A DNA stretch of 35,547 bases. It comes from an uncultured Verrucomicrobiota bacterium (GTDB taxonomy: Bacteria; Verrucomicrobiota; Verrucomicrobiia; Limisphaerales; CAZIFU01). Location: contig CAZIFU010000263.1 of assembly GCA_964539075.1 (NCBI GenBank), forward strand, positions 1-35,547, written 5' to 3'. This document shows, in pieces, positions 6,938 through 30,503 of the stretch; the first letter of the stretch is position 1; every line of letters begins with the position of its first letter. Below the pieces are notes generated by a model. The model did not search any database and was not told the origin of the DNA. It saw only the letters and a list, made by a program, of their open reading frames with translations. Made by a program: the position numbers and the translations under genes.

Positions 6938-7016
6938 AATTGTGGTATGAGGCATGAGGTATGAATGCATCGGGACGCGCCTTGAGTTTCATATTTCCCG
7001 CCTCATACCTCATACT
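6938..7016. repeat. REP-like imperfect palindrome built on the GGTATGAGG / CCTCATACC motif. It overlaps the start codon and signal-peptide codons of the downstream binding-protein gene.
   Basis: ggtatgaggcatgaggtatgaatgcat...cgcctcatacctcatac. The same motif recurs at 10567-10660. Confidence 0.6.
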
Positions 7017-8604
7017 TTTCCTCCTCGCCGCCTGCGCCCGCCGCGAGCCGCCCGCCGACCTGGTCATCATCAACGGCGCCGAACCCGGCTCGCTCGACCC
7101 CGCCCTGGCCATCAGCCTGGAGGAGTTGCGCGTGGTGACGGCGCTCTTCGAGGGCCTGCTGCGCTACGATCCTCAAACCGGCCGGCCCGTTCCGGGACTG
7201 GCCGACCGCTGGGAAGTTTCGCCCGACGGCCGGACCTGGACGTTCCACCTGCGCACCAACGCCGTCTGGTCCACCGGCGAACCGATCCGCGCGGACGACG
7301 TGGTGTATTCCTGGCGGCGCGTGCTCGACCCGGCCACGGCGAGCGATTACGCGGGCCAGTTATTCTACCTCAGCAACGCCGAGGCCTTCAACAGCGGCAA
7401 ACTCAAGGATCCGTCGCAAGTGGGCGTGCGCGCGCTCGACGACTTTACTGTCGAGGTCGAGTTGAACCATCCCACGGCGTTTTTCCTCGACCTTTGCGCG
7501 TTTCAAACGCTCGCCGTCGTGCCGCGGCAAACCATCGAAAAGCTCGGCGATCGCTGGTTGCGCGCGCGCCCGTTGCCGGTGAGCGGCCCGTATCAACTCG
7601 AGGCCTGGCGCGTGAACGACAAGGTGCACCTGCGCAAAAACCCGCGTTACTGGGACGCCTCCCACACGCACTGCGAGCGGGTGGACCTGCTCCCGATCAC
7701 CACGCCCAACACCGCGTTCAACCTTTACGAGGCCGGCCACGCGGACATCATCTGGGACAAGGAACTCGTGCCCGCCGAACTCCTCGAAGTGCTCCGCACG
7801 CGGCCCGACTACCATGCTTTCGATTATCTCGGCACCTACTTCCTGCGCTTCAACACGACCCGCAAACCGTTCGACGATCCGCGCGTCCGCAAGGCGCTCA
7901 CGCTCGCCATTGACAAGCAGCGCCTCGTCGAAAAAATCCTCAAGTCCGGCGAAAAAACCGCCACGCATCTCGTGCCGCCGGGCGTGGCCAATTACCAGTC
8001 CCAGGCCGGCCTGCCGCATGATCCCGCGCAGGCGCGGCGGCTGCTGGCCGAGGCGGGCTATCCGGGCGGCAAAGGGTTCCCCGCCTTCGCCTACCTGTTC
8101 GATTCCGCCGCCGGGGGCGCGGCGAAAATTCACGCGAAGATCGCCGTGGAAATCCAGCAGATGTGGCGGCAGGAACTCGGCGTCCAGGTCGAGCTGCGCC
8201 AGATGGAAAAAAAAGTTTACCTCAAGGCGCAGACGTCGCTCGACTATGACGTGAGCCGCAGCAGTTGGATCGGCGACTACAACGACCCGAACACGTTTCT
8301 CGATTTGTTCATGAGCAACAACGGCAACAACCGCACCGGCTGGAAGAACGCGTCTTACGACCGGTTGATGCGCGCGGCCAACATGGAAATGGATGTCGCC
8401 CGGCGCGCCGCGCTGTTGCGCCAGGCCGAGGCGATGCTCGTGGCCGACGAGGCGCCGATCGCGCCGATCTATTTTTACAGCGGGTTCAACTACTTCAATC
8501 CCGACCGCGTGGCCGGCATTTACCCGAACCTGCTCGACCTGCACCCGATCAACGCCATCCGAAAATTGAGCGGCGTGAGGCGGGCAGCGAGGAATGACCC
8601 ATGA
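6961..8604 (+). CDS. ABC transporter substrate-binding lipoprotein, family 5 (OppA/DppA-like peptide/nickel)
   Basis: Lipobox LLAAC after a hydrophobic N-terminus. The family-5 SBP region DRWEVSPDGRTWTFHLRTNAVWSTGEPIRADDVVYSW is present. It is followed by two permease genes. Confidence 0.9.
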   Translation: MNASGRALSFIFPASYLILFLLAACARREPPADLVIINGAEPGSLDPALAISLEELRVVTALFEGLLRYDPQTGRPVPGLADRWEVSPDGRTWTFHLRTNAVWSTGEPIRADDVVYSWRRVLDPATASDYAGQLFYLSNAEAFNSGKLKDPSQVGVRALDDFTVEVELNHPTAFFLDLCAFQTLAVVPRQTIEKLGDRWLRARPLPVSGPYQLEAWRVNDKVHLRKNPRYWDASHTHCERVDLLPITTPNTAFNLYEAGHADIIWDKELVPAELLEVLRTRPDYHAFDYLGTYFLRFNTTRKPFDDPRVRKALTLAIDKQRLVEKILKSGEKTATHLVPPGVANYQSQAGLPHDPAQARRLLAEAGYPGGKGFPAFAYLFDSAAGGAAKIHAKIAVEIQQMWRQELGVQVELRQMEKKVYLKAQTSLDYDVSRSSWIGDYNDPNTFLDLFMSNNGNNRTGWKNASYDRLMRAANMEMDVARRAALLRQAEAMLVADEAPIAPIYFYSGFNYFNPDRVAGIYPNLLDLHPINAIRKLSGVRRAARNDP

Positions 8605-17376: not shown

Positions 17377-18468
17377 TCACGGCTTCGGGGTTTCTTTGGC
17401 CGGCGGTTTTTCCGGCTCGCGGTTCAGTTGCAGGCGCAGTTCGCGCGTTTTGCCGTCGGCGCGGGTGGGCAGAAAAACCTTGTCTCGCGCGTTGGCCAGC
17501 ACGCGCTCCATCGTCCCGGTCAGCAGCCGCCGCTGGAACAATGCCGGGTCTTTCTGATATTGCGGCAACTGGTCGGTGAAATACCGCGCGTCGGCGGCGA
17601 CCGCTTGCACGACCTGGTTGCTGGTTGTGACGCCGGCGCTGACGATGGCCTGGGCCTCACCGATGGCCTTGCGCGTCGCCTGATCGGCCAGCCCGCGCGC
17701 CTCGCTGATCTTTTTGCCGCGGTCCTGCGCGGCGGACTGCACGGCGTCGAACGCGGGCCGCACGGCCAGCGGCGCGCTGGTCTGGACTTCGCTCGGGTCA
17801 AGGGCAACGCCGAGGTTCAGCTCGTCAATCTTCCGGTTCACGCGCGCGAGCACGAGTTCCTTGAAGCCGCTGGTGTCCTTGTAGAGCGCCGCGTCCGCGC
17901 TGTAACGGGCCGAGGCGTAGAAGAGCGCGTTGTTCAACACGCCTTGGAGCACGTTGGTGATGTTGGCGAAGGTGAAGTGGTAGGTCAGCGCGTCCGCCGG
18001 GCGGATGTGATACTTCAACGTCGCGCGCACGTGGATGATGTTGCCGTCGCCGGTCAACGTGTAGCCGTCCACGCCGGGGGCGAGGGACTCGCGCGCTTCG
18101 GGTTCCTTGCCGGCGGCCTCCAATTCGGGCGTCGTGGCATACCAGCCGACGCTCGAAGTGATCGTGTGGCTCTCGCCAATGGGAATGCGGACGATCTCAT
18201 CAATGGGCCGGGGAAAGGACCAATGCCAGCCGGGCCGCAGCAATTGCTCGCCGCCGGCGCCAACCGGCCGGCCGAAGCGGAGCAGGACGGCGACCTGGTT
18301 CGGTTCCACCACGAACATGCCGGAGAAAAGGAACACGAGCGCCAGGCCGGCCATCAGCCACTTGACGATGCGGAAGCTGCTGCCCAGCGCCTCCGCCAGC
18401 GCCTGCGTGCCGGCGTCCTCGAGGGCGGCGGTTGCGGCGGGCGGACGCTCGCGTTCGGAATGTTCCAT
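17377..18468 (-). CDS. hflK: SPFH/band-7 protein, HflK-like
   Basis: An N-terminal TM helix is followed by an SPFH domain and a C-terminal coiled-coil/Ala-rich tail. It is adjacent to an HflC-like gene. Confidence 0.8.
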   Translation of the reverse strand: MEHSERERPPAATAALEDAGTQALAEALGSSFRIVKWLMAGLALVFLFSGMFVVEPNQVAVLLRFGRPVGAGGEQLLRPGWHWSFPRPIDEIVRIPIGESHTITSSVGWYATTPELEAAGKEPEARESLAPGVDGYTLTGDGNIIHVRATLKYHIRPADALTYHFTFANITNVLQGVLNNALFYASARYSADAALYKDTSGFKELVLARVNRKIDELNLGVALDPSEVQTSAPLAVRPAFDAVQSAAQDRGKKISEARGLADQATRKAIGEAQAIVSAGVTTSNQVVQAVAADARYFTDQLPQYQKDPALFQRRLLTGTMERVLANARDKVFLPTRADGKTRELRLQLNREPEKPPAKETPKP

Positions 18469-18561
18469 GGGGTCTAGGGTCTAGGGTTTAGGGTCTGGGG
18501 GGCCGGGGTCTGGGTTCTCGGGTCTCGGGTCTGGAGTCCGGGTCCCAAGAACCCAGACCCT
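18469..18561. repeat. Tandem array of about 11 G-rich heptamer units (GGGTCTA/GGGTTTA/GGGTCTG...) ending in an inverted copy (agaacccagaccc)
   Basis: gggtctagggtctagggtttagggtctggggggccggggtctgggttctcgggtctcgggtctggagtccgggtcccaagaacccagaccc, located in the hflC-hflK spacer. Confidence 0.7.
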
Positions 18562-18651
18562 GTTTCTCCAGCGGGCCGGACAAGCTGAAGCTTGAACTCC
18601 GAACGGGCTGAACATGGCGTTGGCGTGGTAAACTTCATGTGCGTGCTCTCG

Positions 18652-19581
18652 TCATTTCTTCTGCGTCGGTGAAGGCGCGGCGGGTGGCGGCGCTTCGGTC
18701 CCCGGCGAGTGCAGCATGTTGAACGGCGGCGTTTGCTGGTCGAGAATCAACGTCGTGCGTTCCTTCGTCGCAAGTTCGAGCGCCTTGAGATCGAGGAGGA
18801 AGTTGGCCAGGCGCGGATTTTTTTCAAAAACAGCGAGAAACTTCGCGGCCTCGGCGTCGGCCTGGCCGCGCAGAACGGTCGCTTCGGCGTCAGCCTTGGC
18901 GAGGATTTCCTGGCGCTGGCGGTCGGCGTCGGCGCGGATGCGGATGGCCTCGGCCTCGCCTTCGCCGGTGAATTGTTTGACGAGTTGCTGGCGCTCCTCG
19001 CGCATCCGGTCGAAGACCTTGGCGGTGATGCTTTCCGGCAGGCCGAGCTGTTTGATGCCGACGAATTTGATTTCGATGCCGTAACTGTCCACCGCCTTGC
19101 GCTGCAGGTCGGTTTCCATTTTCTTTTCGATCTCGTCGAACTTGAGGTCCTGCTCGTTGGTGGAGATGAAGTCGGCGAAGGCATACTGGCTGACGACGCC
19201 GTTCTTGGTGTCGCGCACCTGGGCTTCGAGGGTCTGCTCGGCGCGGGCGAGGTCGCCCTGGTCGAAGCGTTCGAGGAACATCCTGGGATCGGCGACGCGC
19301 CAGCCGACGTAGAGGTTGATGAGCAGGTTGCGACCGTCGCGGGTGGCGGTCTGCTCGAAGCGGCGCTCGAAGGTGTGGATGCGGTTGTCGAAGGTGTAAA
19401 CGTTCTGGATCGGCCAGGGGAGCTTCCAGTAGAGGCCGGGCGTGGTGAGGGTGCGCGAGTATTTGCCGAAGGTGGTGACGACGGCGACGTGCGTCTGGCG
19501 CACCTGGAAGGCGAAGAGGAGCAGGGCGAAAATCACCAGCAACACGGCGCCGGTGAACAGGGTGATGGTGTTTCGTTTCAT
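18652..19581 (-). CDS. hflC: SPFH/band-7 protein, HflC-like
   Basis: N-terminal TM helix. HflC-like motifs FDRMREERQ, GEGEAEAIRIRADADRQ and AEAAKFLAVFEKNPRLANFLLDLKALE are present. Confidence 0.85.
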   Translation of the reverse strand: MKRNTITLFTGAVLLVIFALLLFAFQVRQTHVAVVTTFGKYSRTLTTPGLYWKLPWPIQNVYTFDNRIHTFERRFEQTATRDGRNLLINLYVGWRVADPRMFLERFDQGDLARAEQTLEAQVRDTKNGVVSQYAFADFISTNEQDLKFDEIEKKMETDLQRKAVDSYGIEIKFVGIKQLGLPESITAKVFDRMREERQQLVKQFTGEGEAEAIRIRADADRQRQEILAKADAEATVLRGQADAEAAKFLAVFEKNPRLANFLLDLKALELATKERTTLILDQQTPPFNMLHSPGTEAPPPAAPSPTQKK

Positions 19582-19628
19582 GGGTGTAAGCGGTAATTGA
19601 GATAAAACATAATTTGAAATTGGATCGC

Positions 19629-19715
19629 CCTCACCATGAAGCGGAGCACCCCCTCACCCCATCCCTCTCCCCCAATGGGGGAGAGGGTGCCCGAAGGGCG
19701 GGTGAGGGGGAGGGG
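19629..19715. terminator. Nested GC-rich palindrome (likely terminator of the upstream minus-strand gene, at the promoter region of hflC)
   Basis: Perfect palindrome ccctctcccccaatgggggagaggg (19663-19687), nested inside ccctcacc...gggtgaggggg arms. AT-rich sequence follows on the transcribed (-) strand. Confidence 0.45.
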
Positions 19716-19741
19716 ACGGTTCAGGGGTTGCAAGGGCGTGT

Positions 19742-21610
19742 TCATTTCGATTTCGCATCGGGCAGTGAAATGTCGAGCAGATCGGTCCGGATTTTGTCTT
19801 CCAAGTTGAGCAGGATGATATCCTGCGTGTTGGTGACGGCTAGGACGTACTTGCGCACGGGGCCGACGGCGCGGACCAGTGTATCAAGGTAGGCGCGCCG
19901 CGAATAGACGGTGGGCGAGGCTTTGTAAGCGGCGAGCTGGTTGGTGAATTGCGCGGCGCGCGCCTCGGCGCCGGCGAGTTTGTTCACGCGATAAACTTTC
20001 GCTTCGGACAACCGCTTCGCCGCTTCGGCCCCCGCCAGCGGAATGGTTTCGGCCCGGTAGCCTTCGGCCTGGTGAATTTTCGCGGCCTTCTCCTGCACGG
20101 CGCCGATCACATCCTCGTACGCGTCGGCCACGCGGACGGGCGGATGAATGTCCTGCAACCCGACCAACAGCACGCGCGCGCCGAGGCCCAGCGCGTCGGC
20201 GTGCGTCTGGATGCGGTCACGGATGGTTTGCGCGGCGCGGAGCCGGCCGGTGGTCATCACGTCCTCGAGGTCCACGCTCAGGAGATAACGGACGACTTCG
20301 CGGTTGGCGATGTCTTCGAGCAATCGGGCGGCGTCGCGGTGCCGGCCCGCCCAGGCGAAGACGTTGGTGACCTGGTATTGGACCGGGATGTTGACCGAGA
20401 GCAGATTGACCGGCACGGCCTGCTCGACGGTGGTGGTGGCGCTGCGCGTGGCCTCCCGGCTGGCGACGAGAAGATTGAATTCTTCGGCGGTGTGTTTCTT
20501 CGTCCAAAGGGCCACTTCCTCCTTGCCCGGTTTCTCTTCGTGGACGAAACCGACTTCGAAGCTGCGGATTTTCGCGGCGGCGTAGCGATAAACTTTGTCA
20601 ACGGGCCAGGGCCACTTGAGGTGGAAGCCGGCGTCGAGCGCCGCGCGGCCGGCGACCGGCTGGCCGAAGCGTTCGAGCAACCCCTGCTCGCCCGGCTCGA
20701 TGATGACAAACGTGGTGGACAGAAACAGCACGCCGAGTTGCAAGAGCACGAGCCAGGCGATGGCGCGTTCGAGAAAACGGTAGAACCAGGTCTCGGAAAC
20801 CTTGAAACCGAACTGGTAATCGAGCGCCTGCGCGGCGGTGGTGATGACGCCGTCGGGCTGGCCGAGCAGGTCCACGAGGCGGCTTTCATAAAGGGGGCGG
20901 GCGGCCTGGCCTTTGATGCGGGGGCGGTAGATTTCGAGCAGGAGGTTCAGGGCGGTTTCCAGGGCCGCAAGCGCGAGGATCACGCAAAATGCGCGAGCCA
21001 CCCAAAGGTCGAACCTCGGGAAGCCGAACCACGCCGCCGCCTCCGTCACCGTCACGACACAGCACAGCAACGCGCCCAGCATCAGGTAACCCGCCCCGGG
21101 CCGGAGGAGGCGCTGCTTTTCCAGACGCGCGATGCCGGCGGAGTATTTGCCCAACAGGAAGAGCACCAGCGCGAACAGCGCGAACAACGCCAGCGCGATC
21201 GTGACGCGGGCGACGATGGGTGGCGTCGCCCTGGCCAGCACGCGCCAGAACCAGGCGGCCGCGCCGCCTTGCAACAGCAGCAGCAACACGGTGAAGGCCG
21301 GCACCAGAAACCGCTCAAACTGCGCGCGGGCACGGGCTGCCGGGAAGGTTTCGGTTTCCGCGCTGAAGAGGGCCGCGCTGCTCCGGGCGCGGGTCAGTTC
21401 GTCGTATTCAAGTTTCTCCAGCCGTTCGCGCGCCTCCAGCCGCATCTGGAAACAACTCAGGGCGGCGACGAGGAAACCCAGGCCGAGGAAAAAAACCGCG
21501 CCCAGTCCGCTGGCGCTGTTCGCGTGGCGGGCCACCAGGGCGCAGGCGAAGCCGATTACCAGCAGCGCCCCCAGATTGGTCAGGCCGATTTTTTGAAGGT
21601 TGCGGTTCAT
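19742..21610 (-). CDS. Fusion protein: N-terminal polytopic membrane domain of about 300 aa (about 7 TM) plus a C-terminal SPFH/band-7 (HflK/C-like) domain
   Basis: The hydrophobic N-terminal half runs up to ...VLFLSTTFVIIEPGEQGLLERFGQP, where the SPFH domain begins. The C-terminus is Ala/Glu-rich and HflK-like. Confidence 0.75.
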   Translation of the reverse strand: MNRNLQKIGLTNLGALLVIGFACALVARHANSASGLGAVFFLGLGFLVAALSCFQMRLEARERLEKLEYDELTRARSSAALFSAETETFPAARARAQFERFLVPAFTVLLLLLQGGAAAWFWRVLARATPPIVARVTIALALFALFALVLFLLGKYSAGIARLEKQRLLRPGAGYLMLGALLCCVVTVTEAAAWFGFPRFDLWVARAFCVILALAALETALNLLLEIYRPRIKGQAARPLYESRLVDLLGQPDGVITTAAQALDYQFGFKVSETWFYRFLERAIAWLVLLQLGVLFLSTTFVIIEPGEQGLLERFGQPVAGRAALDAGFHLKWPWPVDKVYRYAAAKIRSFEVGFVHEEKPGKEEVALWTKKHTAEEFNLLVASREATRSATTTVEQAVPVNLLSVNIPVQYQVTNVFAWAGRHRDAARLLEDIANREVVRYLLSVDLEDVMTTGRLRAAQTIRDRIQTHADALGLGARVLLVGLQDIHPPVRVADAYEDVIGAVQEKAAKIHQAEGYRAETIPLAGAEAAKRLSEAKVYRVNKLAGAEARAAQFTNQLAAYKASPTVYSRRAYLDTLVRAVGPVRKYVLAVTNTQDIILLNLEDKIRTDLLDISLPDAKSK

Positions 21611-21617
21611 GCCTGGT

Positions 21618-22577
21618 TCAACTCAACTCGCGTTCTTCAAACAAGAGCAACGCGAGTGCCAGCGAGGCGCCCAGGTAGCCCACGACGTAGCCGAAGGCCT
21701 TGGCGAGGTAGCTCCACGGGATCGCCTTGCCCGGCTCCAGCGCGTCGGCCAGCCAGAAAAGCTGCCAGTTGGGCACGAGGGCGTACAGGCCGGCGGCCCA
21801 CCAGGAACCGGCTTCGGCCCGTTGCCCGAACAAATAGTCGGACATCAGGCCGAGCACGAACACGCCGGAGCAGATCGCCAGCGTCGGAATCATTTCAAAG
21901 CGCGTCGAGCACGCCAGCGCCAGCCCGGCGAGAATCCACAGCGCGAACAAAATCAAAATCCCCGCCGGCACCATGCGCCAGTCCACGGGGGAAACCTCTC
22001 CGCTGCGGTCCACGTGCACGGAAAACAAGAGGAGCGCCACGAACGCGATCGTCGCCATCAGCACGACGCCGAAAACCGCGTCCGACACAAAAGGCCGGCC
22101 GAGGAAAAAATTGCTGAACCCGCCCAGCGCGAAGCCCAGAGCCAGCGCGCCGTAAAACGCCAGCAACGCCGGGATGTCCGCGCTGCCGTAGGCATCGAAG
22201 GCCATGCGGCTGGCGAGCAGCGCGCTCAGCAGGTTGACGTAGGTGAAAAGGGTGAGCGCCGCCGCCAGGCCGGTGTATTTGGCGAGGAGGAATTGCGCGC
22301 GCCCGACGGGTTTGGCCAGCACGGCCAACGCGGTGCCGGTGCGGATTTCGTGCGCCACCGAGGCCGACGCGCTGACCACGGTGCCGAACAGGCCCGTCAG
22401 GAACAGCAACGCGAGCACGCTGTCCTTGACGAGCTTGCTGTCCTCGCCGAAACCGAAGTAGGGCACACAGGCGAGGAACACGCCGAAGGCCGCCGAACTG
22501 GTCATCAACAGCAGAAAGACCGGCTGGCGCACCAATTCCATGAAAGCATTGCTGGCGATGGCAATATATTGTCGCAT
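21618..22577 (-). CDS. ABC-2 family permease-like integral membrane protein (no cognate ATPase adjacent)
   Basis: The N-terminus MRQYIAIASNAFMELVRQPVFLLL is typical of ABC-2 permeases. The protein has 6 TM segments. Its stop is 8 nt before the downstream SPFH-fusion start. Confidence 0.65.
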   Translation of the reverse strand: MRQYIAIASNAFMELVRQPVFLLLMTSSAAFGVFLACVPYFGFGEDSKLVKDSVLALLFLTGLFGTVVSASASVAHEIRTGTALAVLAKPVGRAQFLLAKYTGLAAALTLFTYVNLLSALLASRMAFDAYGSADIPALLAFYGALALGFALGGFSNFFLGRPFVSDAVFGVVLMATIAFVALLLFSVHVDRSGEVSPVDWRMVPAGILILFALWILAGLALACSTRFEMIPTLAICSGVFVLGLMSDYLFGQRAEAGSWWAAGLYALVPNWQLFWLADALEPGKAIPWSYLAKAFGYVVGYLGASLALALLLFEERELS

Positions 22578-22669
22578 CCGGGTATGCGGTTGTGCCTCAC
22601 TTTACGAAGCCGGCCGGCGAATGCAAACCGTTAATGCGGGCGGGGCTGAATTTGAAGTGAAGAATCGGC

Positions 22670-22698
22670 TTGGTGGACAGGCGCATTTCCTGTAAAAT
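22670..22698 (+). promoter_or_regulatory. Putative sigma70-like promoter (TTGGTG-N17-TAAAAT) upstream of the island's first gene
   Basis: Hexamers at 22670-22675 and 22693-22698 with a 17-nt spacer. A strong GGAGGA Shine-Dalgarno lies 5 nt before ATG 22782. Confidence 0.3.
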
Positions 22699-22851
22699 GC
22701 CTGAGTCGAGGTATTTTGTAATTGGAATAACAAACAATTTGCGTAGCTTGGCTACGGGCTGACAATGCGCTGGAGGAAAACATGAAAGGCAAATACGGGT
22801 TTATCGTCGGAATAGTGGTGTGGGTTCTTTCGAGTTCTGTTTCGAAGGCCA

Positions 22852-24786
22852 TTGAAGACCTGCATTTCAAGGTGCAAGGCTCCGAATGTGTTGTTCGATT
22901 GGCCGAGCGTTGAAGGGGAGACATACATGATTGTTTATCGCGAAACGATGGAGACCAATACGCCTTGGTATTTCCTGGCAACCAACGTCCCGGCTGCGAC
23001 CGGCACGAATCGGACTTCGTTTGTGCATACGAATGGGGCGGATTGTTCCGGCGGTGGAGGCATGGGGATGATGACGCCGGCCGGCTCCGGAGGCGGTTCT
23101 ATGGCCGAAACCATATCGGAACAGTCTGTGGGCTGCGAATCGAAAGATTCGACATCCGGCACTACCGATTCGTATCAGTTTCCGGCTTTTCCTTGGGATA
23201 AGGAAACACAAGAGAAAATCGCCGCCACCTTTCCAGGATTATTGCCACTTTTGCCTTGGGATGAAGAAACGCAGAAGCAGATAATTTTTTACTATGAACA
23301 GTCCAAGTCCAATTCATCATCTTCTCAAGGTGGCGTGGCGGTAATGAGCAGCGAGAGTGGGGGCGGGGGCTGCAAGGTGAGTGGATTTTACAAAGTCCTC
23401 CGAGTCGGAACCTGGATTGAACATTTGACGAACAACATGCCCGTCTCAGGACTTCTACTTGTCGGTGTCGAAGCAGGACATCCTGACGGAGAACTACAGA
23501 GCGTCACTTTAACCATTGATGGGTCTCCAGTACCGCATTCTGCAAGGAAGATTTCTCCATTCGGCGACCGCTACTTTGTTGCGGACACCACGCGCTATAG
23601 TAATGGCGAACACGAGATCCAGGCCCACTCGACATTTGTACTCAAGGATATTACGGGGGATGATGTTCCTTTCCTCCTCGTTGATAGTCCGGCCATCACT
23701 CTCCAATTCACAAACGTGGTCACGTTCGAAGAATGGAGCGAACTTTTCGGTGAGACGAATTGTTGTTTCACGATCCATTCGACAATCTTTGCAGCCAACT
23801 GGCAGATCCAAATCGTGAACGAGCAGCAAGTTTTGCTCAAAACATTGAGCGGACAAACCACCAATGGGCTGATTGATGTCCAATGGGATTTACGAAACTC
23901 CCAAGGACAACTCCAAACCAGTGGCGTTTTCAATTCAAGCGTGACCATCACAGCTCTAAACACGAACGCTGGGCCAAACCAAGCGACGCAGCAGGCACCT
24001 GTGAAGCTACAGCAAGTGAAAAATTGGCCTGGAGTCGGCCAATGGGTATTTGCCCGTCAATTGCTTTTTACGAATTACAACAACTCTGAAGATTTCTATG
24101 ATATTATGGATTCAGTGGTTGCCTTGGGGGTCGAATGGGGAATCCAGCCTCCACAACCGCCACGGCAATCAGGAAAGCCTTGGTATATTCACTACACGAA
24201 TGACCTAGCGTCTACGCGCTCGAACGATTGGAACGTATTGAGACAGGCATTGTCCAATTCTGTCGTGAGAAACTTCTATTACTTTGGTCACGGGGGTACG
24301 TTTCTGGGTAACGACTTTCCATACGGCATCGATTCGGGCGAGATGAGTATTTTATTGAAGATTTCGCTTCCCAATCATCCAAACTATCGTCCCCTTCGTT
24401 TCGCCTGGCTAGACGGTTGCGCCACGGCTGCGGACGATTGGGCAACACAGTTTGGCATCCAGGCCAGGCCGGATGTTTCGCTGGACTTTTACAAGACAAA
24501 TGGAACACGTCCCGGCGCATTTTGTGGCTTTGCGAACAGTATTTACGCAAGAAATCACTATACTCCGGATAATACGTTGGACTTGGATTTTGCTTATTAT
24601 CGTTCGAACTTCGTTTTTTATTGGCAAGAGATTGGAGCTACTCTAAAGAGCTCGCACCAGCAAGCAGATCAGCTTACACCAGAGCAAGACCCCGATTACC
24701 CCTTTCACTCGTACTTGAAAATCTACGGCTACAGTGAACTGCTTTACGGTCAATATAATCAGCCAGACGACTGGCCTCTGCCATGA
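22852..24786 (+). CDS. Multidomain secreted-type protein with Fn3-like and Ig-like domains and a C-terminal clan-CD (caspase/gingipain/separase-like) cysteine peptidase module. The 5' end is apparently frameshifted relative to a signal-peptide ORF starting at 22782.
   Basis: Candidate catalytic dyad: a hydrophobic strand plus FGHGG (NFYYFGHGG), and about 49 residues later a hydrophobic strand plus LDGC (FAWLDGCATA). There is a Gly-rich linker and beta-rich Ig-like segments. Composition is markedly lower in G+C than the flanks. The track ORF starts at a weak TTG. The first in-frame ATG is at 22927. Confidence 0.65.
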   Translation: MKTCISRCKAPNVLFDWPSVEGETYMIVYRETMETNTPWYFLATNVPAATGTNRTSFVHTNGADCSGGGGMGMMTPAGSGGGSMAETISEQSVGCESKDSTSGTTDSYQFPAFPWDKETQEKIAATFPGLLPLLPWDEETQKQIIFYYEQSKSNSSSSQGGVAVMSSESGGGGCKVSGFYKVLRVGTWIEHLTNNMPVSGLLLVGVEAGHPDGELQSVTLTIDGSPVPHSARKISPFGDRYFVADTTRYSNGEHEIQAHSTFVLKDITGDDVPFLLVDSPAITLQFTNVVTFEEWSELFGETNCCFTIHSTIFAANWQIQIVNEQQVLLKTLSGQTTNGLIDVQWDLRNSQGQLQTSGVFNSSVTITALNTNAGPNQATQQAPVKLQQVKNWPGVGQWVFARQLLFTNYNNSEDFYDIMDSVVALGVEWGIQPPQPPRQSGKPWYIHYTNDLASTRSNDWNVLRQALSNSVVRNFYYFGHGGTFLGNDFPYGIDSGEMSILLKISLPNHPNYRPLRFAWLDGCATAADDWATQFGIQARPDVSLDFYKTNGTRPGAFCGFANSIYARNHYTPDNTLDLDFAYYRSNFVFYWQEIGATLKSSHQQADQLTPEQDPDYPFHSYLKIYGYSELLYGQYNQPDDWPLP

Positions 24787-25955
24787 CAGGTTTTATGTTG
24801 GAATTGACAGCGGACTATGCAGCCTCCGTCCTCATGGCTATCCTGCCGGCCATTTCAGATTTTGCTGGCAAACTGGATTTAGCCGTTCCTGCTCCCCTCA
24901 GCACCAATGACGTGGCTCGCTTTGTTTGCCATCGCATCCCCGGACAATTTGGTGGCCAAGTCGTCTTAAAGAACGGCCTGCGGTTCTTGTATCAAGGCGG
25001 TATCGTGCAAAGCTTCGAGAGCACCAACTGCTATTCAACGCTGCAAGTCCCAGAGCTTGCCGAACGCTTCATTGCTGTACCAAAGATTTCACGCGAAGAA
25101 GCGGTCGCCATCACACGACAGAAACTTACGGAGCTTGGTTACAGACCCGAAAGCTGTTTTGTTTTGCCAGCACCCAAGGTGGAAGGTCCACATGACATTG
25201 GCTTGGGCGTGGTGCCGCACTTTGAAATCACTTGGCTGGACCCGCGTGATGGCACCCGGAGAATTCTGGTCGAAATAAACGGCGCAAACAGACACATCGA
25301 GCGATTGGAAGTCTTGGCGCCTGAATTTGAGCATCCGCCGCCGGTCTTGAGCGGGGCGCACCGCGAAAAGCAGCTTAAGAACGCTTCATTGGACCGCCGC
25401 AACACCGAGCGCGTGGCCACCACTGCGGAGCTACTTGGCCAACTGGACGCGCAAGTGGCGGAATTCTCCAAACGGCTCGGTCTATCGGTGCCTCGCCTGA
25501 CCGAGCAATCCGTCGCCATCATTAAACGATTCACCAGCTCCCATCAGATGGACGTGTGGCTAACATCGGGCGAGCGATTTCGTTTTGAGCCAGACAATCG
25601 ACTGTTCGGTTTCTTTAATCCTGGAAGTTTCTTCCCTCGCGAGACGACGAACCGCGTGCAAAGCTTCTTTGGAAAATCGGCTATTTCCGACGAGGAAGCC
25701 GAAACGATTGCACGCAAGTCGCTCGCAAAACTGGGTTATCAAGCGCCGAAATTAGGTTTGGACAAGCCGGCCCGCATTCGAAAGCCCGTAATCATCGGCA
25801 ATTATTCCATCCCGCGTACTGATTTTGCTTGGGATGTCGGAGAGGGGTTAGAACTACGTGGATTTTTAGCCGTAGAAGTAGATACTCAGAAAGCTCGTAT
25901 TACTTCCATCAGGGTAAGCGATGCGGAGCGGTCTTTATTGCCATTAAAGAAATAG
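24783..25955 (+). CDS. Hypothetical protein made of two tandem units of about 175 aa, each ending in a PepSY-like segment (possible peptidase-inhibitor/chaperone partner of the upstream gene)
   Basis: The ATGA start overlaps the upstream stop. Internal repeat 1 is ISREEAVAITRQKLTELGY...RILVEINGANRHIERLEV. Internal repeat 2 is ISDEEAETIARKSLAKLGY...FLAVEVDTQKARITSIRV. N-subunit repeat VARFVCHRI..LRFLYQGG parallels VAIIKRFTS..FRFEPDN. Confidence 0.65.
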   Translation: MTGFMLELTADYAASVLMAILPAISDFAGKLDLAVPAPLSTNDVARFVCHRIPGQFGGQVVLKNGLRFLYQGGIVQSFESTNCYSTLQVPELAERFIAVPKISREEAVAITRQKLTELGYRPESCFVLPAPKVEGPHDIGLGVVPHFEITWLDPRDGTRRILVEINGANRHIERLEVLAPEFEHPPPVLSGAHREKQLKNASLDRRNTERVATTAELLGQLDAQVAEFSKRLGLSVPRLTEQSVAIIKRFTSSHQMDVWLTSGERFRFEPDNRLFGFFNPGSFFPRETTNRVQSFFGKSAISDEEAETIARKSLAKLGYQAPKLGLDKPARIRKPVIIGNYSIPRTDFAWDVGEGLELRGFLAVEVDTQKARITSIRVSDAERSLLPLKK

Positions 25956-25961
25956 TTTAAT

Positions 25962-26924
25962 ATGTCCGTCGAAATCCATCCGCAACCGGGCGCGCTGGCG
26001 AAATTTGGCAGCGAGTTTTCCGCGCTCTGGCGGGCGTTGCCGAACAAGGGTCTGTTCTTCGGCCTGCTGGCGGCCTGGCTGGCGCTGTTCCACGTCGCCG
26101 GCAACTCGACGTTTGGTTATTACGACACACCCTCGCTGCTGCGCTGGTTATACCTCGCCTACACCCAGGAGCAGTCGGAGGACGGGCTGGGACTGGTGAT
26201 GCCCGTGGTGGTGCTGGGATTGTTGTGGTGGAAGCGGGGCGAGTTGCTGGCGTTGCCGCGGGGGCTGTGGTGGCCAGGATTGGCCGGGCTGGCGGCGGCG
26301 CTCTTCACGCACGTGGCCGGCTACATGATCCAGCAGCCGCGCGTCTCGGCGGTGGCGTTGCTGACGGGCGTTTATTTCCTCGTCGGCCTGGTGTTCGGAC
26401 GCGCCTGGCTGCGGGCGATTTCTCCCCCTTTCGTGCTGCTGGGATTTTGCGTTCCGGTCAGCTCGTTGATCCAGAGCATTTCGTTTCCGCTGCGGCTGCT
26501 GGCCACCCAAATCACGGCGGGCATCAGCCAGCATGTGCTGGGGATTCACATCGTGCGGGAGGGGACGAAGCTGCTGGACGCCAACGGCACTTATCAATAC
26601 GATGTGGACGTGGCGTGCAGCGGCATCCGCAGTCTGGTGGCCATTTTCGCGCTGGCGCTGATATATGGGTGTATCGCGTTGCGATCGAACCGGCGGCGGG
26701 CGTTGATGGTGGCGGCGGCCTTTCCGCTGGCCATCGCGGGCAATGTGTTCCGGCTGACGAGCATCATCCTCGCGGCGGAGGTGTTCGGGCGCGGGGCGGG
26801 AAACTTTGTGCACGAGCAACTCGGCCTGTTGCCCTACCTGCCGGCCTTTGCGGGCGTGATGTTGCTGGGGCATTGGCTGCGCGAGCGCAAAGCGTCCCTG
26901 CCTCTGGAGGTCGGGCTGGCATGA
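25962..26924 (+). CDS. Exosortase (XrtA/EpsH-like transpeptidase)
   Basis: Polytopic 8-TM protein with the active-site region DVDVACSGIRS and the AGNVFRL (N..R) motif. It starts 6 nt after the stop of the island's second gene. Confidence 0.85.
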   Translation: MSVEIHPQPGALAKFGSEFSALWRALPNKGLFFGLLAAWLALFHVAGNSTFGYYDTPSLLRWLYLAYTQEQSEDGLGLVMPVVVLGLLWWKRGELLALPRGLWWPGLAGLAAALFTHVAGYMIQQPRVSAVALLTGVYFLVGLVFGRAWLRAISPPFVLLGFCVPVSSLIQSISFPLRLLATQITAGISQHVLGIHIVREGTKLLDANGTYQYDVDVACSGIRSLVAIFALALIYGCIALRSNRRRALMVAAAFPLAIAGNVFRLTSIILAAEVFGRGAGNFVHEQLGLLPYLPAFAGVMLLGHWLRERKASLPLEVGLA

Positions 26925-29181: not shown

Positions 29182-29293
29182 ACCATCATGCCACCGGGCA
29201 ACGCTTCACGCGCAAAGGCTCCCTCCTCCGAGGCGCCGGATGTTCTGGGAAACAGGTCCCGGACGTTCCAATGGAGTCAGAAAGCCCGCGTTG

Positions 29294-29484
29294 AATGACG
29301 AATGACAAAATCCTAATGACGAAAGAATGACGAAGGCCCTCAATGACTAATGAGCGGTTCGCCTAAAAAAATGTTGCGGAGCGCAGCAGGCCGGCATGGG
29401 AGGCAGTTCCCGGCCGGCAGAGGCCATTGGGATTTCGTCATTCGGATTTCTTTCGTCATTCGAGCTTCGTCATTAGTCATTCCC
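29294..29484. repeat. Large inverted array of the 7-mer AATGACG (left arm, 4-5 copies) and CGTCATT (right arm, 4-5 copies) around a GC hairpin, sited in the UXS promoter/leader region
   Basis: gaatgacgaatgacaaaatcctaatgacgaaagaatgacgaaggccctcaatgactaatgag ... tttcgtcattcggatttctttcgtcattcgagcttcgtcattagtcattcc. Confidence 0.6.
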
Positions 29485-29534
29485 GAGTTGAGCCAGTCTG
29501 CCCCTTAAAAATATCGAGCCACCGGCGAGGCATT

Positions 29535-30503
29535 ATGCCTGTGAAAAAAAATCGCCCAAAAAAATCAACCGGCCCCGTTTCCGTGGTGACCGGCGGCGCG
29601 GGCTTTTTAGGATCGCACCTCACCGATCTGTTGCTGTCGCGCGGCCACCAGGTCATCGCGATAGACAATTTCGTCACCGGCAGCGTGGACAACATCGCGC
29701 ACCTGGGCGGCCACCCGCGCTTCCGGTTCATCCAGCAGGACGTGACCGAGTTTATTTTTCTGGAAGAGGCGGTGGATTTCGTCTGGCACTTCGCCTCGCC
29801 CGCCAGTCCGGTGGATTATCTGGAACTGCCGATTCAAACGCTCAAAGTCGGCTCGCTGGGCACGCACAAGGCGCTGGGCCTGGCCAAAAACAAAAAGGCG
29901 CGCTTTCTCCTGGCCTCCACCTCGGAAGTATACGGCGACCCGCTGGTGCATCCGCAAACGGAGGATTACTGGGGCAACGTCAACCCGGTCGGCCCGCGCG
30001 GCTGTTACGACGAATCCAAACGCTTTGCCGAGGCGCTGACGATGGCCTATCACCAGGAACACCGCGTGGCGACCCGCATCGTGCGCATCTTCAACACCTA
30101 CGGCCCCCGGATGCGCCTGCGCGACGGCCGGGTGGTGCCGGCCTTCATGGCGCAGGCGCTCGAGCACCGGCCGCTCACCGTGTTCGGCAACGGGACCCAG
30201 ACGCGGAGCTTTTGTTACTGCTCGGATTTGATCGAAGGCATTTACCGGCTGATGTACAGCGCGACGCATCTGCCCGTGAACATCGGCAATCCGCACGAGC
30301 TGACGATGCTGGAATTTGCGCGGGCGGTGATCCGGGCGACCGGCTCGAAAAGCAAAATCATTTTCAAGCCGCTGCCGCAGGACGATCCGCGGCAGCGCCG
30401 GCCCGACATCACCCGGGCGCGGGCGTTGTTGAAGTGGTCGCCTCAGGTTTCGCTGGCGGAGGGATTGAAGAGGACGATTGCCTATTTCCGGAAAAAAATC
30501 TGA
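29535..30503 (+). CDS. UDP-glucuronate decarboxylase (UDP-xylose synthase) / NAD-dependent epimerase-dehydratase
   Basis: The start was trimmed to ATG 29535 (MPVKKN...). The upstream part of the track ORF is encoded by the repeat element. Motifs [10 protein letters not shown] (Rossmann), STSEVYGDP and the YxxxK region are present. Confidence 0.9.

Follow-up and report, generated by a model that had tools for sequence, protein, structure and literature searches.

We analysed a two-gene cassette on a 35,547-nt contig of an uncultured Verrucomicrobiota bacterium (CAZIFU010000263.1; this whole stretch is called the window in the following). Gene 1 encodes a multi-domain protein with a predicted cysteine peptidase domain of clan CD at its C-terminus, and gene 2 encodes a protein with PepSY-like modules. 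The features of the cassette are listed in Table 1. A previous interpretation of this DNA from its letters alone (the sequence-only reading) had described both genes as coupled through an ATGA overlap, which we could confirm at positions 24783-24786, with both genes on the plus strand. The strong Shine-Dalgarno sequence that it had described was likewise found, as GGAGGA located 4 nt ahead of the ATG of gene 1 at 22782. It had also assigned a sigma70-like promoter to the cassette, but our promoter scan did not detect any sigma-70-like site in 22578-22781, and the three sites found in the whole window are the number expected by chance. The cassette landed between a divergent ABC-2/SPFH operon and an operon encoding an exosortase (Xrt), EpsI and a glycosyltransferase. 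Neither of the two proteins was assigned to a family by searches of Pfam, NCBIfam and PADLOC.

Table 1. Positions of the cassette features in the window
Feature	Position	Strand	Remarks
AT-rich leader, from the divergent ABC-2 gene to gene 1	22578..22781	+	Shine-Dalgarno GGAGGA at 22772-22777; the drop in GC begins here
Gene 1, fragment A	22782..22913	+	ATG, Sec-type signal peptide (MKGKYGFIVGIVVWVLSSSVSKA), first strand IEDLHFKVQGS, out-of-frame residues, TGA; collinear with the N-termini of homologues P0002-P0008
Gene 1, body	22852..24786	+	644 codons from the first in-frame start; 619 aa annotated from ATG 22927
Probable 1-nt insertion (one A of AA)	22885..22886	+	shifts gene 1 by +1; match to P0002 after deletion
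Predicted clan-CD (caspase/gingipain/legumain-fold) domain of gene 1	24004..24783	+	His480 codon 24289-24291, Cys523 codon 24418-24420
Gene 2, tandem PepSY-like partner	24783..25955	+	390 aa; ATG overlaps the gene 1 stop (ATGA); without signal peptide
Gene 2, module 1	24783..25367	+	predicted long helix plus 4-strand sheet, then helix plus 4-strand sheet: two PepSY/cystatin-like subdomains
Gene 2, module 2	25368..25952	+	paralogue of module 1 (22% identity)

The cassette differs from its surroundings in base composition. The sliding profile of the G+C content (GC) fell from 0.63-0.68 in the flanks to 0.46-0.55 between approximately 22600 and 25960, and a maximum-likelihood fit with two change points gave a GC of 0.505 within 22496-25975 versus 0.648 elsewhere on the contig. 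No other 3384-nt segment of the contig is as low in GC as the cassette stretch (minimum elsewhere 0.60, standard deviation 0.015). The difference resides in codon usage: gene 1 has a GC at third codon positions (GC3) of 0.53 and gene 2 one of 0.56, compared to 0.83-0.86 for the flanking ABC-2, SPFH, exosortase and sugar-transferase genes. The compositional drop that had been claimed for this stretch is therefore real, and the two genes form a genuine, compositionally foreign cassette. Because the composition changes sharply at both ends and the contig is metagenome-derived, we considered an assembly or binning artefact, in which the low-GC stretch would be a chimeric join with DNA from another organism. 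The window is matched at 100% identity by two independent assemblies of single sequencing runs, over 7860 nt in SRR9952632 and over 5753 nt in SRR9952630. Both of them cross the right-hand junction and the leader and extend over the start codon of the neighbouring ABC-2 gene, and the SRR9952632 assembly additionally crosses the maximum-likelihood left boundary at 22496. Since these two assemblies rule out a chimera, and since the cassette is also AT-richer than its flanks in most other loci (see below), the probability of an artefact is practically nil.

Clan CD covers caspases, legumains, gingipains, separases and CHAT proteins, which share an alpha/beta/alpha sandwich. In these enzymes, the catalytic His precedes the Cys; the former is part of a His-Gly pair, the latter follows a small residue, and both come directly after a hydrophobic strand. 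The C-terminal domain of gene 1 contains the corresponding motifs FYYFGH(480)G and FAWLDGC(523), each preceded by a hydrophobic strand. The dyad and its strands had been correctly recognised in the sequence-only reading, but not the spacing, which is 43 residues (His480-Cys523) instead of about 49. Among 84 full C-terminal domains of the family, Cys523 is kept in all and His480 in 83, and three arginines (Arg473, Arg516 and Arg553) are each kept in 81-84; these arginines would point to a substrate with an acidic or carboxylate P1. Cys523 is preceded by Gly in 74 of these domains, by Ala in 8 and by Ser in 2. An AlphaFold2 model of residues 385-644, based on 8 sequences, gave an alpha/beta sandwich (predicted local distance difference test score, pLDDT, 60; predicted template modelling score, pTM, 0.65). 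Its strands 88-94 and 133-137 are consecutive and end right before His480 and Cys523, respectively. Two fold-comparison methods recovered the clan-CD fold for this domain, which, together with the near-invariant His and Cys, supports the fold originally proposed. The top Foldseek match is the legumain-cystatin complex, and the fold matches also include peptide asparaginyl ligases and the glycosylphosphatidylinositol (GPI) transamidase.

At the sequence level, profile searches of the PDB with alignments of 8 and 62 gene 1 sequences gave no clan-CD match and retrieved FlgD-Ig for the middle domain only. The Pfam models of known clan-CD families, which the sequence-only reading had proposed for a search, did not detect the window protein; Peptidase_C25 matched one of the 62 family members with an E value of 0.021, which misses the cut-off. 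As modelled, the C-terminal domain of gene 1 is a new sequence family with a clan-CD fold and an intact dyad. Conservation of the dyad (His-Gly ... Gly/Ala-Cys) makes an active cysteine endopeptidase or transpeptidase the most likely product of gene 1.

The consensus architecture of the gene 1 family begins with a signal peptide whose last residue is a conserved Ala, followed by a small WPS..GETY beta-sandwich, Gly-rich linkers that contain PWD.ETQ repeats, two immunoglobulin (Ig)-like domains, the second of them FlgD-Ig-like, and the C-terminal domain of about 260 residues. The gene 1 body of the window follows the same order, with the WPS..GETY beta-sandwich, Gly-rich linkers, two PWD.ETQ repeats, two Ig-like domains and the clan-CD domain; the second Ig-like domain (residues 299-367, 23746-23952) shows weak similarity to FlgD-Ig. 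A 63-nt direct repeat at 23187-23282 in the linker corresponds to two copies of (F/L)PWD.ETQ..I between the Gly-rich stretches, and this motif is also found in P0002, the closest homologue. While a word-index search retrieved 7 relatives of gene 1, an exhaustive profile search of clusters at 50% identity gave 1368 cluster representatives at E<=1e-3, 341 of which reached E<=1e-30. Public records label the proteins of this family as hypothetical.

Some relatives of gene 1 are very long. P0099, P0139 and P0151 (1600-1640 aa) as well as P0143 and P0159 contain Big_9, cadherin-like and PKD domains, and the Ig plus protease part sits at the end of the very long proteins. Judging from these sequences, the same catalytic domain also seems to occur in surface-adhesin contexts. 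The signal peptide and a 'WPS..E(S/T)F' beta-sandwich also head other secreted proteins without a protease domain (L021:11155-12417, L030:3810-4805 and L088:449-2038), and therefore look like a common Verrucomicrobial N-terminal module of unassigned role. These features, together with the fold matches to peptide asparaginyl ligases and GPI transamidase, would be in line with a non-degradative role. Gene 1 could then encode a peptide ligase or transpeptidase, a surface protein that processes itself or a catalytically silent adhesin, with the partner as regulator or scaffold instead of an inhibitor: its Ig domains are adhesin-like, some of the 1600-aa relatives carry the Big_9/cadherin-like domains, and other secreted proteins have the same N-terminal module, among them one in which the partner is fused to it (L015, see below). 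However, the near-invariant His, Cys and three Arg argue for catalysis, and no substrate-like gene is conserved nearby. We consider such a role quite unlikely, even if nothing distinguishes a ligase from a hydrolase at the level of these data.

Gene 2, which is translationally coupled to gene 1, opens directly at its first helix and only eight codons are open upstream, so that the protein lacks a signal peptide. It is composed of two homologous modules of about 195 residues each. Single-module homologues match both halves (E 1e-32 and 1e-11, the latter for module 2), and these matches and the identity between the modules (Table 1) bear out the internal duplication that had been noticed before. 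The model of module 1, derived from an alignment of four module sequences (pLDDT 79.6, pTM 0.75), contains two helix-plus-four-strand units. The module thus shows the helix on a four-stranded antiparallel sheet that defines the PepSY fold, and cystatins are among the fold matches of gene 2. The Pfam model PF03413 (PepSY), in turn, did not match gene 2 of the window or nine other modules even at E<=10, but it matched 6 of 83 members of the gene 2 family (best E 2e-5). The PepSY-like nature suggested by the sequence-only reading therefore holds for the fold, and the Pfam model reaches these six relatives but not the window protein. According to the model, each module is made of two divergent PepSY domains, giving four in total; the gene 2 family is a divergent relative of PepSY, mostly beneath the Pfam threshold.

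The sole homologue retrieved in a word-index search with gene 2, even with the 10-module alignment, was P0010, which adjoins P0002. The gene 2 family was assembled from the DNA of the gene 1 loci. About 31 of 88 partners possess a signal-peptide-like N-terminal extension (including those of L015, L017, L031, L041, L051, L057, L060 and L074), while the other 57, the window's included, do not. At L015:9869-12067, both partner modules are fused behind a carrier of the gene 1 type, consisting of signal peptide, WPS beta-sandwich and Ig.

We then asked how regularly the two genes occur together. A genome scan with gene 1 motifs yielded 72 loci, nearly all of them from metagenome-assembled genomes of Verrucomicrobiota, and several genomes harbour two or three. 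Using the partner-module profile, a partner was found within 700 nt downstream in 59 of 76 gene 1 copies; with the iterated profile, it was located directly downstream in 73 of the 75 copies with room for it. Conversely, gene 1 lies directly upstream in 12 of 14 metagenome loci with room that had been picked by the partner motif. The gaps between the two genes are short, or the genes overlap. This recurrence in both directions agrees with the expectation of the sequence-only reading that the pair should be found elsewhere, and the pairing of gene 1 with gene 2 is near-obligate. The flanks do not contain a recurrent third gene; the most frequent one occurs in 6 of approximately 70 loci. The cassette represents a large, unnamed accessory family of Verrucomicrobiota.

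For the GC comparison, we used the 66 loci among L001-L076 that had flanks of at least 3 kb. The cassette was AT-richer than its flanks in 63 of them, with a median difference of -5.9 GC points; the cassette of the window is the most extreme (-12.2 points). Low GC therefore goes with the cassette itself, whatever its location, and is not the mark of this one insertion. Such a family-wide trait fits a frequently exchanged accessory unit. Direct hallmarks of mobility were not found: there are no flanking repeats, no integrase and no nearby tRNA around the cassette, no homologues were detected on plasmids, phages or IMG/VR viral contigs, and a transposase adjoins the pair in a single locus (L004). 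A metagenome scan with an exosortase probe for an empty site, with the ABC-2 gene directly beside Xrt, did not find any. The designation as an island is hence justified by the deviating composition and codon usage, but not by signs of mobility.

Downstream of the cassette are the genes for Xrt, an EpsI/DUF3485 protein and an exopolysaccharide (EPS) priming glycosyltransferase. As had been stated before, the exosortase gene starts 6 nt past the stop codon of gene 2 (ATG 25962) and has a poor ribosome-binding site of its own: a Shine-Dalgarno sequence is missing. The sequence-only reading had derived from this a functional tie to the Xrt sorting system. In such a scenario, protease and partner would be co-transcribed with Xrt and would process or sort PEP-CTERM proteins. 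The short distance, the missing Shine-Dalgarno sequence and the lack of a terminator-like site between the genes are compatible with it, as are the EpsI/DUF3485 and glycosyltransferase genes that follow Xrt and the fact that clan CD includes sorting transpeptidases, such as GPI transamidase. But a phmmer census with the Xrt of the window as the only probe, which highly divergent exosortases could escape, found no exosortase at a distance of up to 5-8 kb from the pair or partner in 88 other distinct loci (72 from genomes, 16 from metagenomes). Among the loci covered, the window is the only one in which an exosortase adjoins the pair. Moreover, the GC3 of the pair and Xrt differs by about 30 points, so they were not inherited together, and Xrt is intact while gene 1 is frameshifted here (see below). 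Neither gene 1 (ending in ...GQYNQPDDWPLP) nor gene 2 (ending in ...AERSLLPLKK) has a PEP-CTERM tail, and both ends lack a transmembrane segment and a PEP motif. Together with the lack of a recurrent third gene, these results led us to abandon the functional tie, which we regard as highly improbable. The adjacency of the exosortase is incidental, an accident of insertion, although the cassette may now contribute read-through transcription. A tempting inference is thereby corrected: the pair is not part of the exosortase pathway.

On the other side of the cassette, an ABC-2-type membrane protein (21618-22577, minus strand) adjoins three consecutive SPFH/Band-7 paralogues on the minus strand (17377-18468, 18652-19581 and 19742-21610). 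Together they form an operon (17377-22577) that is divergent from the cassette and has no obvious function. A smaller GC dip (0.54-0.58) at 29200-29600 is intergenic, between the genes for the EPS priming glycosyltransferase and an epimerase. ARAGORN reported a 95-nt tRNA-Ser at 7447-7541 (minus strand) within the gene for an oligopeptide-binding protein (6961-8604); Rfam gave no tRNA at the gathering score at this position, and the call is probably a false positive.

Gene 1 of the window is interrupted by a frameshift. The signal peptide and the first strand (22782-22913) are separated from the body (22852/22927-24786), which is in the +1 frame, whereas signal peptide and body share one frame in the homologues. 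The signal peptide itself is conserved across these homologues. Fragment A comprises 43 codons and is called as a separate 43-aa open reading frame (ORF) in two other assemblies, while the public annotation begins the protein at ATG 22927 and thus describes 619 aa without a signal peptide. Any single-base deletion within 22876-22895 restores an ORF of 667 aa that is collinear with the homologues. If one A is removed at 22885-22886, the sequence reads GSDVLFDWPS, compared to GSDVILNWPS in P0002. The extra base is identical in the SRR9952632 and SRR9952630 assemblies, and because these reproduce the sequence at 100% identity, it is real and not an assembler error. The sequence-only reading had treated gene 1 as a single gene with a signal peptide and had missed this frameshift. 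Since the insertion detaches the signal peptide, the window copy of gene 1 is probably export-defective or decaying.

Programmed +1 frameshifting at this break was rejected, as there is no slippery or stop-codon context, the breaks in other loci are at other positions, and the product would lose the invariant WPS motif. A fusion of gene 1 and gene 2 through -1 frameshifting was also discarded: a slippery site is missing, and the other loci differ in their spacing. Approximately ten homologues of gene 1 are split into two frames as well (L012, L029, L033, L036, L039, L048, L052, L067 and L075). Their breaks fall at differing positions of the protein, with no conserved site, and reflect either frequent pseudogenisation of the family or indel errors of long reads.

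Taken as a whole, the data are best explained by a foreign two-gene cassette encoding a clan-CD peptidase together with a PepSY chaperone-inhibitor partner in trans, a reading that we consider fairly probable. The product of gene 1 would be a Sec-exported multi-domain protein with a C-terminal cysteine peptidase domain. The product of gene 2 could bind this domain as a chaperone-inhibitor, i.e., as a prodomain supplied in trans, and keep the enzyme silent until its release. Catalysis, binding, inhibition and the cell compartment of the partner are what we infer here. There is room for a trans prodomain, because gene 1 lacks a cis prodomain of the gingipain type. PepSY propeptides of M4 and M36 peptidases act as chaperone-inhibitors in cis. 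A precedent for inhibition by the cystatin fold is given by the top Foldseek match itself, in which legumain sits in complex with a cystatin. The PepSY domains of YpeB, whose gene shares an operon with that of SleB, have been proposed to embrace and inhibit SleB and to be needed for its stability (PMC13556211).

Several points weigh against the chaperone-inhibitor reading. Gene 1 is frameshifted in the window, and the system may therefore be non-working in this organism. No sequence-level match ties gene 1 to any named clan-CD family, and the model of its peptidase domain is only moderately confident with its pLDDT of 60 from 8 sequences. In addition, the partner has no signal peptide in the window and in about two thirds of its relatives, in contrast to the protease, so that the compartments of the two proteins may differ. 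For the partners without signal peptide, the proposed function must be stretched, by analogy, to that of a cytoplasmic safeguard. Staphostatin and Spi offer the nearest analogy for such a role.

An alternative view of the pair starts from the observation that caspase-like domains are known as C-terminal toxin domains, which are exported by the type II secretion system and other routes (PMC3482391). Gene 1 could accordingly encode a secreted caspase-fold toxin of the 'Tox-Caspase' type, and gene 2 the immunity protein for the producer and its kin. A number of the features described above would suit such an effector-immunity pair: the cassette is AT-rich relative to the host in 63 of 66 loci and multi-copy in several genomes, gene 1 is often frameshifted (about 10 loci), and most partners lack a signal peptide. 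Furthermore, at least three distinct loci (L016, L055 and L084/L085) contain a full pair followed by a truncated gene 1 tail and a divergent, complete partner, and extra tandem partner genes are found in L001, L039 and L060. The tail fragments (L016:11194-12196, L084:4588-6236, which equals L085:1143-2791, and L055:10719-11514) correspond to the last 60-125 residues of the protease domain. In L016 and L084, fragment and extra partner are 27-41% identical to the resident pair. By analogy, these tail-plus-partner units recall orphan toxin-immunity modules or decayed tandem pairs. On the other hand, the family is conserved in its C-terminal domain, which is not a variable tip on a constant carrier. 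Markers of Rhs, contact-dependent inhibition, type VI or type VII secretion or PVC systems were not found, there is no recurrent neighbour gene, and neither Pfam Tox/Imm nor PADLOC gave any matches. The partners are a mixture of exported (one third) and non-exported proteins, which is atypical of an immunity family with a single target compartment, and the role known for PepSY domains is that of chaperone-inhibitors acting on cognate enzymes, not that of immunity proteins. We regard an effector-immunity pair as rather unlikely.

The chaperone-inhibitor reading can be carried one step further. With some hesitation, we put forward that this may be the first clan-CD peptidase family with zymogen control outsourced to a separately encoded PepSY array, present as a widespread, AT-rich, multi-copy and often decaying cassette of Verrucomicrobiota that may serve as an effector/antidote module in interbacterial conflict. 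Clan-CD peptidases, such as caspases, legumains, gingipains, separase and CHAT proteins, have key functions in cell death, virulence and anti-phage defence, and to our knowledge every known clan-CD family has its own way of being held silent. The gene 1 family is not represented in Pfam, NCBIfam or the PDB, yet it includes more than 1300 cluster representatives at 50% identity and nearly always has a PepSY-array protein encoded after it. If the partner is indeed a trans chaperone-inhibitor, PepSY domains would gain a third class of client enzyme, and the chaperone-inhibitor principle would be extended from metallopeptidase propeptides and SleB/YpeB to caspase-fold enzymes. The cassette would then also provide a simple two-protein system for studying the inactive state of caspase-fold enzymes and would explain what a common pair of 'hypothetical proteins' of soil and freshwater Verrucomicrobiota does.

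The pairing of a protease with a PepSY-type partner had been put forward as an unrecognised one. This is supported by the literature searched, in which we did not find anything that links PepSY to clan CD, to caspases or to Verrucomicrobial cysteine proteases. Both folds are already known and the finding is not a new principle, but neither the sequence family nor a clan-CD enzyme paired with a PepSY array in trans appears to have been described. Compared with known systems, the gingipains RgpB and Kgp (MEROPS C25, clan CD) share approximately 11% sequence identity with gene 1, and their Pfam family gave the single match mentioned above. The domain order of gene 1 is reversed relative to the gingipains, with the Ig domains at the N-terminus. 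Gene 1 also lacks their cis prodomain and the C-terminal domain for type IX secretion, its presumed regulator being a separate PepSY protein. Legumain and other asparaginyl endopeptidases (C13, clan CD) are eukaryotic, have a cis C-terminal prodomain and show no sequence similarity to gene 1. The cystatin that binds legumain comprises just one small domain, and its gene does not share an operon with that of the enzyme, whereas gene 2 encodes a PepSY array beside gene 1. The FTP/PepSY propeptides of M4 and M36 enzymes are covalently attached to a metallopeptidase, while gene 2 is a separate gene beside a predicted cysteine peptidase of a different clan.

Two systems resemble the cassette in their operon structure. 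SleB-YpeB of Bacillus is likewise an operon of an enzyme and a tandem-PepSY chaperone-inhibitor. However, SleB is a lytic transglycosylase and not a peptidase like the predicted gene 1 product, and YpeB is membrane-anchored, while the partner in the window has neither an anchor nor a signal peptide. SleB-YpeB is also restricted to Firmicutes and sporulation-specific. In the staphopain-staphostatin and SpeB-Spi systems, a secreted cysteine protease is followed in the same operon by a dedicated inhibitor without signal peptide, and the partner in the window, too, lacks a signal peptide and is encoded downstream of the protease. But staphopains and SpeB are papain-like (clan CA) and staphostatins are beta-barrels, in contrast to the clan-CD fold and the PepSY domains predicted here, and, different from staphostatin and Spi, one third of the partners in the gene 2 family are exported.

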